Position numbers and translations under genes: made by a program. Shown here in pieces: positions 1-12,526 of a stretch of 64,000 bases of DNA. This stretch comes from Eutreptiella sp. 'Long Island Sound 2002' (lineage: Eukaryota; Protista; Euglenida). Numbering within the stretch: the stretch's first letter is position 1; each line of letters begins with the position of its first letter. The DNA lies in the NCBI GenBank assembly GCA_964036045.1, contig OZ038378.1:1364001-1428000 (forward strand), given 5' to 3'. The notes beneath the pieces are model-generated. The model did no database searches. It was not told the DNA's origin and worked only from the letters and a program-made list of their open reading frames with translations.

Positions 1-661
1 AATAAGGCTTGACATTACCAAGTTTGGGAGTACAAAGACAGGGCCGAAGGGCTGCTCTTGCCATGAAAGGCAAAACAGGTTTGGCACTATGAAAGGAAGG
101 GCCGAGCACGCGGAATCATTCACCCCCAAAGGGTCAAATACCCGCTATAATGTTACAAGAAGACACACATTGTAGCAAATGAGGCTGGAAGAAGCCATGT
201 GTTCATGAAATCAAGTAATATTTTTGTGGATTATGTCAAGCGGCATCACACAACGGCAAGGTTTAGAGCATGATTCATTCAAGTGTACTTAGGGGAGAGT
301 ATATTTTCCCAATACCTCAAAGTGCCAGGTCCCGAATCCTCTTTTTCATCTTCCGGGATCTCCTGAAGTGTTTGTCTGGACTCGCACAACACATGCACAT
401 ATATTATTTGAACCAATTAGATATTTTGCGCTGCCCGGCGGTAGGGAGCGGCCTTCGAGGAATGGATCCACCAGGGGCTTTCGTGATCCACGCACCATAC
501 CACGGCTCAAGGAGAAAATAGTTCACCCGAGAGCAAGCTCGGGATGCCATTCATGAAAGTGACAGGGAGGGCCATAGGCGGGTAAAGAGCAAGAAGCTTG
601 AGGTAGAAGTTGAGCCGAAAGCACCCACTCGTAACCTTCAAGATGTTTTTTGAATGCTTGG

Positions 662-2147
662 TCTCTCCGTATCCTACGACTCACTCCTTTAGAAAGGAGA
701 TTCCTATACACCTCGTTACTCTCAGGACTGAGGAGGCTAGCTACTACTTCCTCATCTCTCCCCACAAATGCCGCAGCGTGCCGCCTCCACCCAGGTGGAA
801 GCCAAGGACTTATCGGGGTAGCCGATAGGGGAGCCCCAACCCCTCGGTCCCGAGCATGGGAGCACCTACTCTCGCTTCGCTTGCCGGCAGACTTGAGGAC
901 AAAGGACCCCATGATATCCGTAAATCACGGGGACGAAACTAACCGTATGTCACGGAGTTTGTCCGGCTCCACTTCATACATACTTCGGTTCCAATTTATC
1001 ATGGGTAAGATATCATTCGCATCCAATCCTGACTCTCTAGTTGGGGTACCAGCCTCCTGGTACGCTGCAGGCATTGCCGCGCTTGCCGGTGAAACGTTGA
1101 TCACGGGCAGATCTCGCGTGAAAATTTTCCGTCCTGGTTTCACTCCGCGCATATTGACGGTCCAGGGGAGCAGCCCTCCTCCACCCAGACTTGCCGGTGT
1201 TCCTAGCCACCGGATGATCTCCTCGTTCGACTGTCCCGAAGAACCGGACAAACTCCTCACCATGTGGGTGGCCAAGCTGGTAGTCGCGTAACGACAAGAT
1301 GCTTTGACCCACAGGCTTAACGTCGCACGAAGAGAGTTCTCTGCAAGCATTGGATCGTTTCTAAGAGGATTCCGAACCAGTAATGTCGGCGTCGTACGTG
1401 CAAGATAACCCGTCACACCTTTTTCTGTGTACACTAAGCGTAGGTACTCATCCCTCACTCTACTCACGAAGAATTTAGCTGGGTTGACAACGAAGTTCAA
1501 CAACTTGTAGGCTATGACGACGGCTATTCCCAACCACGGGTCGCTGACCCTGGTCCTATGGTCATCACTTTGTGCTGTCAAGTAATCGAACACCGTGAGC
1601 CTACGCCCAACCCTCCTAACACACTCTGAGACTGCGGTTGCAATACCTATGTTGGCAATGGTGTCTATCAACGCCGTCCAGCGCCAACCCGACACGACTC
1701 CCTTCTCTATCAAAACCTTTGACACACTACCGTCATTCATCCGTAGGTGCACGTAGCCCTTCTCACTTATCAATATTCTATATATCCCAGCCATCACCAC
1801 CAACATATCGTATTGCACACTGTGTGGTGCCCTATCTACTATCAAGTTCGTGATCTCATCTAACACTATGGGTATCATTCCCTTGCTTACGTTGTGATCC
1901 AACCGAGACTGATCGACATGTATCTTCACATTTCTTGCACTACACGCACCCACAGCTTCATGACGTTCTTGGACTTGTTGACATCAAGAGGATACACATA
2001 GAATTACCGGCGAGCGCTGGCTCCAACTAATGTGATATATAACTCATCATTATGTACAATCTGTCGTCAGAGTTCACCTCTGCCCTCGCTTTCGCAAGCT
2101 CTCGCTTTACTATTGCTCTAGCCTCCTGCCCCACTCCTCCCTCCCCC
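662..2147 (-). mobile_element. Endogenous viral element, partial copy 1 (3' part of toti-like RdRp)
   Basis: Near-identical to 8170-9655. Host-repeat sequence resumes at 2148 (aatcctg..., cf. 30445). Confidence 0.9.
925..1953 (-). pseudogene. Core fragment of a dsRNA-virus (toti/giardiavirus-like) RNA-dependent RNA polymerase
   Basis: Motif A DQSRLDH, motif B GVVSGWRWTALIDTIAN, motif C AQSDD (GDD altered), downstream GYLARTTPTLLVRNP. Copies at 3473-4501, 6231-6913 (partial) and 8433-9461. Confidence 0.92.
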
Positions 2148-3209
2148 AATCCTGCGCCTCCAATTCACCCCCCAACGGGCCGACGTTATGTGGGCCATGT
2201 TTGATTGCTCCGTGCCTCCAGAGCCTTTGGGATGGCAAAGGCTATGAAGCCATTTTCAATTGTGCCCCCATTTCGGGTACCCCCAATCCTGCGAGGGTAA
2301 TGTAGACATTTTGTCCCGATGTGGCACCCTAAGATGGAAGGGGTTTTGTAGCAATGTTGTTCCAAACGTCCCTACTACTGTGCTGCATGTTGCAGAACAC
2401 CGCTTTTAATGACATGAGCATATGGTGTATTTCTCGACTCAAGGATCGTATGACATTCGGATGGTTAGCTCTTGATTTGCCATTGGATCGGATTGGAGGG
2501 GGCGAGTATTGGGTGAAGGCACAATGCCGTCTAAGGCACTGCTTACTCAATAAGGCTTGACATTACCAAGTTTGGGAGTACAAAGACAGGGCCGAAGGGC
2601 TGCTCTTGCCATGAAAGGCAAAACAGGTTTGGCACTATGAAAGGAAGGGCCGAGCACGCGGAATCATTCACCCCCAAAGGGTCAAATACCCGCTATAATG
2701 TTACAAGAAGACACACATTGTAGCAAATGAGGCTGTAAGAAGCCATGTGTTCATGAAATCAAGTAATATTTTTGTGGATTATGTCAAGCGGCATCACACA
2801 ACGGCAAGGTTTAGAGCATGATTCATTCAAGTGTACTTAGGGGAGAGTAGATTTTCCCAATACCTCAAAGTGCCAGGTCCCGAATCCTCTTTTTCATCTT
2901 CCGGGATCTCCTGAAGTGTTTGTCTGGACTCGCACAACACATGCACATATATTATTTGAACCAATTAGATATTTTGCGCTGCCCGGCGGTAGGGAGCGGC
3001 CTTCGAGGAATGGATCCACCAGGGGCTTTCGTGATCCACGCACCATACCACGGCTCAAGGAGAAAATAGTTCACCCGAGAGCAAGCTCGGGATGCCATTC
3101 ATGAAAGTGACAGGGAGGGCCATAGGCGGGTAAAGAGCAAGAAGCTTGAGGTAGAAGTTGAGCCGAAAGCACCCACTCGTAACCTTCAAGATGTTTTTTG
3201 AATGCTTGG

Positions 3210-10835: not shown

Positions 10836-12222
10836 AATCGGCAATTGAGCGTGACAGTGGCCTTGCGGGAATAATCCTGTTGAAAAAGACGCTGGCCCGC
10901 AATTCCACACACATAGGCTCTGCTCCCAATGACCTCGATGGCGCACAGACGTTTATCCTCGATGCCTTACGCAGGACCTCGTCCATTTTGGCCCCTGTCG
11001 CAGCTTGTCCTAGCGCCGTATACACATGCAAGAAATCCACACTGTACATGGTGTAGGGATTGGCCACATCTATTTCTGCGTACACGGCATCCCTCGTCGG
11101 CCAAGCCCCCACCCTATCATCTTCCTCCATCGTGGGAGCCGCGTTCTCATACCTGAGACGGCTTTGTGATACTCTGGCGTATGGTAAAAGACTTATCGTG
11201 TCGTAGACCTCGTCGGGTGACTCGTCTTCGTCCAGACCGGTCCATAGGGCAACGTCCATGGTGGAGTTCATTGTCAACAACTGGGCTTGTGGAGGAATAT
11301 TTAGACAATACCAAATGGCATTCTTCAGTGCAGCGATCGACATACCGTCGCATACGAGTAGGATCGTGGAGGAGCCGTGATATTTCACAAACATTGGCCA
11401 TGACAGCGTCGCGTCGTCTTCCGACATGTCGCTGCCACCAGGCGACGCTGGTGTACCTAGAATGGCAGGCATCACTTGGCCTTTTGGGTGCTCGCCCCAA
11501 TAGTTGGGATTCTGCCACCGATTCTGTTCCCGCAAGGCCATCTCGAACGTGCTTTCTTGAAACAATTGCTCCACAAGCTGGAGGGAATGGTGCACATGGC
11601 GCGTGCACTCGTGCACATGGGAGTTCGCGTGCTCTTGTAGCGGGGTCCCCAAAACTAGAGGGAGATGCACTTCTAGTCGCAACCGCAGGCGTGTCAATTT
11701 TGATTCCACGACGTCGTGCAACACAGTCCACATAGGGAGAGTGTGATCCCGTGGGCGGCTGGGGGAGGCCGAGGAATCCCACGCGGGTAGGTGTTTAGGA
11801 CCAAAGTTCTCCGTGGGATACTCTAAGCCGAAGTCCGTGTAGCCCCTCTCCGCATCCAGCCCATCCATGGGGGCGGGGGCTAGTACTGGGTGGTGCCATG
11901 TATCCACCAGTGGCGCACATCGCCACGGGCACCCCTTGAGCCGCGGGTCGTAGGCACATACCGTGCATAGTCGGTGCCGTGGGTGGCCCGGTAATGGGTA
12001 TAGCACTGTGTCATCATAGCAAAGAGGTCAATGTTCGAGGTCCTATTGCGAGCGGTCAGGGAGAAGAAGTTCTCTTGTGGGGCCGCCAAGGGAGGACGTT
12101 GCTCCTTGCTCGTTCGGGATCGTCCACAAAGGTTGTAGCGATGGGGACCGCGGTGAGGTCCGGGCGGCTACAAAGAGTGGAAGCTCCGCCGGACCGTAAA
12201 CCAGCTCTGTAGGCAACCATCT
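10825..12222 (-). pseudogene. Viral ORF1 with Cys/His cluster and ubiquitin-like domain (about 11180-11400)
   Basis: 393-aa open part at 10825-12006. The same frame continues to 12222 through stops at 12028-30 and 12043-45. WPMFVKYHGSSTILL...SIAALKNAI...NIPPQAQLL aligns by eye to ubiquitin MQIFVKTLTGKTITL...TIENVKAKI...GIPPDQQRL. Confidence 0.75.
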
Positions 12223-12526
12223 TCATTTGGAGTAGTCTGTTTGGCCGGGCCCGGAGTTGTGGATGCCTTTGCCATTATGGAGGGTTGTTGTTGCCCGCCG
12301 CGGATTGGTTCATCGGTGTTCAATGAAGGCACCACCGCAATACTGCTTCCAGCATGTTGTTACCCCGACGTGGCCTTCTCGCTTTATAAGAATACACAAA
12401 GTCACACACATACACAAATACACAAACCCTTTTCGGCAGGCGATGTGTGCAAAAAAGGCGGCATACTCTTCGCGTGAACCCCACACTACCGGCGGTCGAA
12501 AGGGCGAACTATCGGTTATCCAAAGA

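Follow-up and report, generated by a model that had tools for sequence, protein, structure and literature searches.

A decayed toti-like virus copy, permuted by sequence comparison, within an amplified host satellite array

In the window (the whole stretch of DNA analysed, 64,000 nucleotides), sequence of a toti-like dsRNA virus stands several times over among host tandem repeats, which raises the questions of how such a virus came to be built into a satellite and whether its copies serve the host or are merely carried along. An earlier note on this DNA had proposed that a host repeat took up viral sequence and that the two were amplified together once the virus had decayed; indeed, the junctions, the copies and their shared breaks all agree with this proposal.

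Array layout and decay of the viral RdRp

Four viral segments (V1–V4) lie among copies of a host module, H (Table 1). By self-comparison of the window, the four are co-oriented, as had been described, on the minus strand, and the RdRp motifs A–C are present in all of them (PF02123, E 9e-5), this repeated region being simply what the fixed breakpoints enclose. V1–V4 are 99.2–99.4% alike with zero indels between copies, and comparison between copies gave 0 silent/4 replacement and 2/4 changes. The junctions read previously at 661/662, 2147/2148 and 6230/6231 stand as positions, but the last one joins virus to virus (11190 to 8779) and not virus to host. Also, the offsets of 2548 and 4960 bp hold, whereas 4960 bp is not a single chimeric unit; it is composed of the 2548-bp chimeric unit and a purely viral unit of 2412 bp. 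The virus–virus junction of the 2412-bp unit forms the left edge of V3 with 1-nt microhomology (bridged in X6, X7 and X8), and 3-nt microhomology marks the joint between the left edge of H (7108) and virus position 9655 (bridged in X6 and X8). The array continues past the window, with its left end lying outside: at least four further variants are found there, on a long genomic contig (1,447,961 bp), and the RdRp-core copies amount to at least 8 in total.

Table 1. Features of the array and of its right flank, in window positions
Feature	Position	Strand	Remarks
Host module H, partial, at window edge	1..661	.	2 differences to 2549-3209
Viral copy V1 (= V4 8170-9655)	662..2147	-	decayed; RdRp motifs F and A-E; 9 differences in 1486
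Host module H, 1062 bp	2148..3209	.	satellite-family mosaic; 1 difference to 7108-8169; 88-92% to satellite monomers
Viral copy V2 (= V4 8170-11190)	3210..6230	-	17 differences in 3021
Viral copy V3 (= V4 8779-9655)	6231..7107	-	7 differences in 877
Host module H	7108..8169	.	left edge defines 2548-bp unit
Inverted host piece, 187 bp, at insertion site	7983..8169	-	24 bp + 160 bp matches
Terminal viral copy V4, 4357 bp	8170..12526	-	toti-like genome remnant, circularly permuted by sequence comparison
RdRp main part	8170..10521	-	profile positions ~71-717; two frameshifts (~9940, ~9480), stops (10229, 9537, 8435)
UUU_CGN-type +1 frameshift motif	10510..10521	-	two codons before ORF1 stop; same arrangement in L030
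ORF1 remnant	10510..12027	-	400 open codons (12027-10828) + ~100 codons with two stops
Zone most likely to hold head-to-tail joint (3' part to ORF1)	12028..12309	-	putative; joint could be further into ORF1
RdRp C-terminal ~70 codons + stop, displaced ahead of ORF1	12310..12525	-	profile 718-748
Virus-free host satellite	12527..25544	.	partial unit + 5 units of 2466 bp (13209-25538), internal ~914-bp duplication
Hairpin-rich satellite segment	12536..12643	.	22-nt arms, 91% complementary
Host repeat continuation, un-inverted	25545..25904	.	relative of H left flank and of inverted piece

Copies so alike would also be expected if the copy number or the junctions were an artefact of assembly or if a live virus had been co-assembled, and the right junction (12526/12527) is indeed bridged by no listed contig piece of the RNA libraries. 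Private differences are, however, present in every viral copy, the further variants lie on a contig of the same length, and three of the array junctions are bridged, with the same frameshifts and no indels relative to the window, by contigs from independent estuary RNA libraries of other studies. An artefact is hence unlikely for these three junctions, and as an account of the array as a whole we regard it as most improbable. A live virus as the source of the estuary contigs is ruled out, since these include host junctions and match the window without indels.

To describe the RdRp, a profile was built from 106 full-length relatives among 148 hits with the window excluded, and its positions 71–748 of 790 are matched in pieces. 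The RdRp reaches PF02123 (RdRP_4) at the cut-off (22 bits) and has 639 relatives at E ≤ 0.001; it departs at 4 of the 31 conserved columns, motif C among them, and only 1 of the 106 relatives departs as much. All 8 breaks examined have an identical 31-nt context in each covering copy, and amplification therefore followed decay, in line with the earlier proposal and with the silent and replacement changes between copies given above. With its viral sequence joined to host DNA and its reading frames decayed, the locus is a non-retroviral endogenous viral element (EVE).

As for the virus itself, the best relative outside the window's own cluster shows 41% identity among 50%-cluster representatives, behind which closer ones may be hidden, or such relatives may be unsampled. 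No close relatives were found in viral or metagenome contigs, nor was a close virus of 617–2000 aa found by a word search, which is a weak method. In a tree made by a quick method only, the virus sits on a long branch outside any supported clade, its identity to the others being 38% at most. The unclassified toti-like relatives (P0003–P0150 and L001–L080) are ones that we take to be of the Ghabrivirales type. Toti-like dsRNA viruses from metatranscriptomes are alike in the SGWRWT-type motif B and in an RdRp of ~800 aa placed downstream of ORF1 via a frameshift, but the 16 with ORF1 closed at the 5' end share a capsid core that was not detected in the window. The UUU_CGN motif for a +1 frameshift is common to the window and, according to PMC5880360, Amalgaviridae; nonetheless, we do not file the virus there, as its nearest matches among the relatives compared are the ~800-aa RdRps of toti-like genomes of 5.7–10 kb.

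Ends of the terminal copy, ORF1 and the frameshift site

V4 had been taken for a near-full-length copy; instead, profile comparison shows it to be circularly permuted, and it probably lacks much of ORF1. Namely, the 8170 end matches profile positions 657–717 and the 12526 end positions 718–748, so that the ends of the insert abut at 717/718. Since each end alone is weak in the full-length profile (E 0.17 and 9.2), the case for permutation is made by this adjacency together with a C-terminal profile. In the latter, the two end pieces, linked by an X where they break, are scored as a single domain with 25.2 bits; none of the 500 shuffles or of the 694 control pieces attained this score, and among 2054 pieces of the window the one at the 12526 end ranks first (E 0.0028). 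For the RdRp ends of L003, L013 and L018, tblastn gave independent hints as well (E 0.009–0.24). A reading of 12526–12340 as a 5' UTR is ruled out, the region being the RdRp C-terminus by profile and tblastn.

In the zone where the head-to-tail joint would lie, RNA folding (12330–12030) is no better than in shuffles (z -0.46). Rfam gave no ribozymes or known RNAs. A change of G/C skew near 11130 is unusable as a mark of a deletion joint because a comparable shift between ORF1 and the RdRp occurs in several relatives.

The UUU_CGN site, which is in frame, is likely to be the natural joint of ORF1 and the RdRp, at which ribosomes would shift frame. From the stop of the RdRp to its start, the permuted copy spans only ~1790 nt; among long relatives, ORF1 has 855–1625 codons in 16 of 28 (those with ORF1 closed at the 5' end). 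No match to a capsid-core profile was found in the window (best E 4.1), and no ORF1 homologue of 220–700 aa was found. At E < 0.01, the same profile recovers 9 of the 16 non-seed relatives and misses the other 7 ORF1s, two of which are truncated; given these misses and the long branch of the virus, the absence of the capsid core could reflect divergence. We consider that the viral copy is probably capsid-deleted relative to its parent virus. A ubiquitin-like domain considered in ORF1 (11415–11158) found no support from Pfam or PDB sequences; its single-sequence model (pLDDT 60) gave no match at E ≤ 0.001, the best (Z 6.3) being to unrelated folds, and the model of the 400-aa ORF1 (pLDDT 39) was unusable.

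Insertion site and proposed origin

The virus-free unit of 2466 bp on the right is present in 5 copies with 4–13 differences per unit, a low divergence similar to that of the viral units, and the unit sizes of 2412, 2466 and 2548 are nearly equal, as was noticed post hoc. The hairpin-rich segment begins 9 nt from the right junction. At the left junction, the inverted host piece contains 24 bp identical (24/24 in 11 paralogs) to satellite sequence that stops 4 nt short of the site corresponding by homology to the right junction, and a further 160 bp match 25745–25904 inverted with 92.5% identity. Because the inversion at the left junction thus holds the 24 bp that normally adjoin the site of the right junction, both junctions are assigned to one insertion site and probably to one event, and from these matches we infer the pre-insertion allele. 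The ORFs of the satellite that both junctions join have no Pfam match, and the satellite may be of LTR origin; an integrase-like remnant is met no closer than ~32 kb away. A MULE search yielded 16 proteins, all unnamed. The satellite motif is absent from JGI contigs, and a promoter scan of H, built for bacterial promoters, stayed at chance level.

We think it rather probable that the decayed, permuted toti-like copy arose from a reverse-transcribed and probably capsid-deleted DNA circle, which was joined into a break of the satellite and subsequently amplified as a passenger. A host reverse transcriptase would have copied viral RNA, and closure of the copy would have linked sequence downstream of the RdRp stop with a part of ORF1. 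The circle would then have been opened ~70 codons before the end of the RdRp, as the permutation indicates, and joined, perhaps in a single event, into the satellite beside the hairpin-rich segment with inversion of 187 bp of host DNA. Frameshifts and stops then built up, as the copies show. Duplications bounded by microhomology may have produced the 2548-bp host-plus-virus and 2412-bp virus-only units observed, and unequal exchange would have spread the units to the RdRp-core copies counted above, the virus-free 2466-bp unit expanding alongside. No present function is required by this model.

The 2412-bp unit nonetheless counts against the model, in that virus-only head-to-tail joints also form here after integration. 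The circle might instead be chromosomal: an older linear EVE would have given a virus-only tandem, from which recombination excised a unit-length circle that was re-inserted here, or else such a tandem was invaded by host repeat DNA and shed its outer viral parts. A virus-only tandem duplication did happen at the locus, RdRp repeats from the same virus group stand head to tail in a moth protein (P0002), and the heavy decay would allow a long earlier history; extra steps are needed, however, RdRp matches right of 12528 are all at E 0.5 or worse if the displaced C-terminus is set aside, and a joined 8170/12526 form is absent from four RNA runs, in which cover at these ends is thin. We therefore regard a chromosomal circle as unlikely and favor the reverse-transcribed one.

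Circles of this kind are known as defective-genome cvDNA of Drosophila and mosquitoes (PMC5857290, PMC6797480) and, for a dsRNA virus, as vcDNA-S7 of BmCPV (PMC8964962), and circular viral DNA has been proposed as a precursor of integrated non-retroviral EVEs (PMC5857290, PMC8964962). The window resembles the cvDNA systems in holding DNA made from a non-retroviral RNA virus, with a presumed head-to-tail joint and a probable internal deletion. While the circles are episomal, seen during insect infection and often fused to LTR retrotransposons, the permuted viral DNA of the window is a decayed and amplified part of a chromosome, set among satellite repeats, and no circle was observed. ToEVEs of planthoppers and other arthropods (PMC10636211) are likewise frameshifted fossils of toti-like RdRp/CP, some duplicated with >99% identity, but piRNAs are shown in ToEVEs, and no permutation or incorporation into satellite units is described in the accessible text. 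Viral fragments repeated, rearranged after integration and bounded by host repeats are also found in the nrEVE clusters of Aedes albopictus (PMC7448346), which are flavi/rhabdo elements near LTR retrotransposons, and in the IHHNV EVE of Penaeus monodon (PMC8982415), a jumbled ssDNA virus with inversions. Unlike these cases, the copies in the window all point the same way and go back to a single permuted unit, and their unit size is that of the neighboring satellite. An integrated, permuted example of a circle-derived EVE was not found in a full-text literature search, the reach of which excluded most subscription journals. A permuted EVE with abutting ends is plausibly the footprint that the circle-to-EVE route predicts, and a cheap genome-wide test follows, namely mapping both ends of nrEVEs on the profile of their family.

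RNA libraries and the memory reading

All 19 runs are contigs, none of them labelled as a small-RNA library, and hence come without strand, size or expression level, with DNA carry-over inseparable; the comparison of depth leaves out the small-share runs X11–X16. Contigs of the RNA libraries cover 22–27 of 30 EVE bins versus 24–27 of 30 bins of a non-viral control stretch, many pieces being without differences. The depth of the single-copy viral part is 0.6–1.9 versus 0.8–1.5 for the control in three RNA libraries (p 0.07, 0.20 and 0.05), and the viral part is shallower than the control in one of the three. The part at 8804–11195 reaches ~5–9 times the control, and H and 8252–8803 only 0.5–3 times; copy numbers in the window do not predict this unevenness, which thus counts against the circle and passenger model. 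High-copy control bins are only 4–5 times deeper in the RNA runs versus ~480 times in organism A, the longest control pieces of which are only ~86–90% alike to the window, so that the genotype may differ. Since the depth in the RNA runs does not follow the repeat copy number of organism A, the region may be transcribed to some extent. Weak transcription of the control stretch is possible too.

Between a repeat-amplified memory locus and a passenger of the satellite, both of which had been offered in the earlier note, the passenger fits better, because the virus-free 2466-bp unit has expanded alike and one of the amplified units is purely viral; the memory reading is without positive support. 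In the latter, a maintained antiviral or silencing memory would make a low-level long precursor, and the amplified units would raise the output of small RNA against a cognate virus. The contig cover of the EVE stretch and the control would be consistent with such a precursor, as would a depth that does not scale with the copy number of organism A, unlike simple DNA carry-over, and an amplified core that is the deepest viral part; precedent exists in insects (PMC6797480, PMC7448346 and PMC10636211). The single-copy viral depth is, however, close to the control, the amplification extends to a virus-free unit, a close living target virus was not found, a PIWI pathway would have to be assumed for the host, and organism A as the reference of depth may differ in genotype from the window. 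A maintained memory is, in our view, improbable. With equally little confidence, we raise the reading that the locus is a fixed, base-resolved fossil of a step that has been proposed but so far not documented, in which circular viral DNA of a defective genome becomes a heritable EVE, for a dsRNA virus and possibly in a non-arthropod estuarine eukaryote, lying in a weakly transcribed repeat domain in which satellite-sized duplications raise the viral dose for small-RNA silencing. Satellite turnover can raise the copy number of an EVE without selection, and caution is hence advised against reading amplified EVEs as immune memory.

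Layout, decay and extent of the viral array

Judged from its sequence, the element is a non-retroviral endogenous viral element (EVE) from an unclassified toti-like virus; many microalgae harbour such viruses, according to the accessible text of PMC9927876. A 352-codon frame (9491-8436) passes the Pfam cut-off for RdRP_4 and has 639 relatives among 1.84 billion representatives, where the closest ones beyond its own cluster show 28-41% identity, and a quick tree of 65 rows places the virus on a long branch with at most 38% identity.

Features of the window
Feature	Position	Strand	Relation or basis
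H, partial	1-661		self-comparison and base-by-base comparison
V1	662-2147	minus	V4 8170-9655, 9 differences, gap-free
H	2148-3209		base-by-base comparison
V2	3210-6230	minus	V4 8170-11190, 17 differences, gap-free
V3	6231-7107	minus	V4 8779-9655, 7 differences, gap-free
H	7108-8169		base-by-base comparison
V4	8170-12526	minus	host satellite follows
MULE transposase frame	54403-56328		PF10551 (P0189)

The four viral segments (V1-V4) all lie on the minus strand, as an earlier note on this DNA had claimed of their common orientation, and the two complete copies of the host module H differ at 1 of 1062 bases when compared base by base. The layout with three host-virus junctions in that note held in the self- and base-by-base comparisons, except that 6230/6231 joins virus to virus; the array therefore consists of a 2548-bp host-plus-virus unit and a 2412-bp virus-only unit, and the 2548-bp and 4960-bp units read previously are both recovered, the latter as the sum. 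The later (amplification) junctions have 3-nt and 1-nt microhomology.

Against a profile built from 106 full-length relatives (picked by length among 148 hits, with the window left out), the RdRp is split into pieces across two frames: the reading frame shifts near 9940 and near 9480, and stop codons interrupt it at 10229, 9537 and 8435. It also deviates at 4 of the 31 columns with conservation of 90% or more, motif C included; only one of the 106 relatives deviates equally. At all eight breaks examined, the surroundings are identical in each copy covering them. The element thus decayed first and was amplified afterwards, in agreement with what had been read from the shared inactivating mutations. 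Silent and replacement differences between copies of the 352-codon frame (0 and 4, and 2 and 4; small numbers) do not point to selection on the protein.

Nine proteins make up the 90% cluster to which this RdRp frame belongs, and seven of them come from one ENA contig of 1,447,961 bp, equal in length to the contig that carries the window's MULE protein P0189; three of the seven are encoded in the window (by four copies) and four are not, so at least eight RdRp-core copies would lie on what is likely the window's contig. Furthermore, part of 7700-13200 is held by 16 of the 19 listed runs (10 studies), including runs of two organisms and four metatranscriptomes from estuaries. Contigs bridge the virus-virus joint in three of these four and the 9655-to-host joint in two; 8169/8170 is bridged by one piece with no difference, and 12526/12527 by none of the listed pieces. 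Since the estuary contigs bridge array joints and, aligned to the stretch in all four, have no indels relative to the window, they represent the same decayed element, and live virus in these libraries was rejected. Of what the earlier note proposed to seek, further RdRp-core copies outside the window are likely present and joints of the array occur in other samples, and the array is real; that its copy number or junctions are an artefact is very improbable. Run X5, which carries a second species label (organism B), contains a 0.59 share of the words sampled from 7700-13200; the element may be shared, the sample mixed or the label merely different.

Circular permutation and ORF1 of V4

V4 had been taken as a near-full-length copy; it is indeed the terminal viral copy, but is circularly permuted and probably deleted, its order being RdRp end, stop, part of ORF1, and RdRp as far as the cut-off point. 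Read from the 12526 end, the first 71 codons resemble the C-terminus of the relatives' RdRp. With the 106-relative profile, the 8170 end falls at positions 657-717 (E 9.2) and the 12526 end at 718-748 (E 0.17), each weak by itself. A profile of the final 170 residues of these relatives ranks the 12526-end piece first among 2054 window pieces (E 0.0028) and, with X at the break, scores both end pieces as a single domain of 25.2 bits, which is reached by none of 500 shuffles (maximum 10.6) and none of 694 other pieces (maximum 11.8). The displaced piece stops after ~70 codons, about where the protein P0005 ends. A circle opened once would give abutting ends directly and is favoured because two later deletions would need to coincide within about one codon. 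That the circle was chromosomal, or that a tandem was rearranged, is unlikely. Duplicated and rearranged EVEs are already known (available parts of PMC7448346, PMC10636211 and PMC8982415).

The locus looks like a product of the circular viral DNA (cvDNA) route of insects (PMC5857290, PMC6797480), and can be likened to that route for a dsRNA virus (PMC8964962); in the accessible text of these studies, integration is proposed, not shown. Full-text literature searches, some judged by listing, found no permuted integrated EVE, and a literature search gave no match for a totivirus in satellite DNA. A 1180-aa moth "hypothetical protein" (P0002; KAL4720683.1, Scirpophaga incertulas per source) has head-to-tail toti-like RdRp repeats spanning profile positions 558-723, then 245-723, then 245-734, and is another candidate for an EVE of concatemeric or circular origin.

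At the ORF1/RdRp joint, an in-frame UUU_CGN motif, a frameshift motif in the available text of PMC5880360, lies two codons ahead of the ORF1 stop; the same is seen in the related locus L030, so this is likely a natural joint. The RdRp stop and the RdRp start are only ~1790 nt apart; among 28 long relatives, the 16 in which ORF1 is 5'-closed have ORF1s of 855-1625 codons. A capsid-core profile, which at E<0.01 recovered nine of the 16 relatives outside its seed, had no match in the window, and the 400-codon ORF1 frame had no homologue of 220-700 aa and uninformative predicted folds. The viral template was likely capsid-deleted; alternatively, a parent virus naturally small and divergent would need no deletion. 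In the related viruses L004, L029 and L030, ORF1 and RdRp overlap by 20-26 nt in +1, with UUU_C just ahead of the ORF1 stop; viruses of this toti-like group may commonly use +1 frameshifting.

Insertion site, amplification and transcription

H is a mosaic of a satellite family (88-92% alike) and terminates in an inverted piece, of which 24 bp are identical to sequence ending 4 nt before the right-junction position in 11 paralogs and 160 bp match 25745-25904 reversed. Most simply, this reads as a single break at the right-junction site, repaired with viral DNA plus a 187-bp inversion; a hairpin-rich segment starting 9 nt from this junction is possibly a fragile site. The 2412- and 2548-bp units are within 3.5% of the size of a virus-free 2466-bp unit (chance ~2e-4, post hoc and under a log-uniform assumption), which suggests that mispairing by one satellite unit drove the duplications. 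We consider it fairly probable that the element is a circle-derived EVE amplified as a satellite passenger: a viral circle, opened once, would have entered one break in the satellite together with the inversion, decayed, and then multiplied through tandem amplification.

The earlier note had left passenger or antiviral memory locus as alternatives. The passenger part gains from the virus-free unit, whose five copies (4-13 base differences, comparable to the viral copies) expanded comparably, while depth of the single-copy viral part is near control, and a maintained memory locus is quite unlikely. On the control stretch 32001-52000, to which three of the RNA runs and one run of organism A were aligned, the RNA runs cover 24-27 of 30 bins, many pieces being difference-free. 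Single-copy viral depth is 0.63, 1.91 and 1.44 versus 1.46, 1.01 and 0.76 in 17 low-copy control bins, and the amplified viral core reaches ~5-9x control depth, with H and 8252-8803 at only 0.5-3x. Contig depth, a poor measure carrying neither strand nor size, thus gives no evidence of virus-specific expression in these runs. The excess depth of eight bins is ~480x in organism A but only 4-5x in the RNA runs (rho 0.40-0.56), which speaks against plain DNA carry-over, and weak transcription of the region is possible. The longest control pieces of organism A are partial and only ~86-90% alike; coverage of this organism may be thin, or its genotype may differ. The three estuary RNA libraries cover the non-coding 32001-52000 near-evenly with exact pieces and lack organism A's pile-up on high-copy repeats, which may reflect regional transcription or a different genotype.

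Repeats and other elements of the window

The host is a repeat-rich eukaryote whose sequence occurs in the estuary libraries, and none of its observed features suggests an arthropod. Its repeats are CpG-depleted (o/e 0.67-0.76; virus 0.91), which suggests host CpG methylation. Dispersed monomers of the same satellite family (26572-27415 and 30060-31647; 85-90% alike) indicate that a dispersed repeat carrying hairpin-rich segments gave rise to the tandem arrays. Further local duplications at 42181-43965 and 49738-52521 (~900 bp at 93%, ~680 bp at 89%) are consistent with a duplication-prone region.

Within 52737-58945, the MULE frame has an array of 54 tandem 21-bp copies on one side and an array of 28 copies of 53 bp on the other; at 90% identity, the MULE family comprises 205 variants. 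In 57485-64000 the 53-bp array returns inverted at 63805-64000, enclosing ~5 kb with long frames and no Pfam family match; by eye, part near 62300-62760 resembles a SET domain, to which Pfam gives no support on the pieces. A decayed LTR-retrotransposon-like remnant at 44000-48700 (integrase zinc-binding E 0.0015, under cut-off) is very high-copy in organism A, with depth up to 9100.
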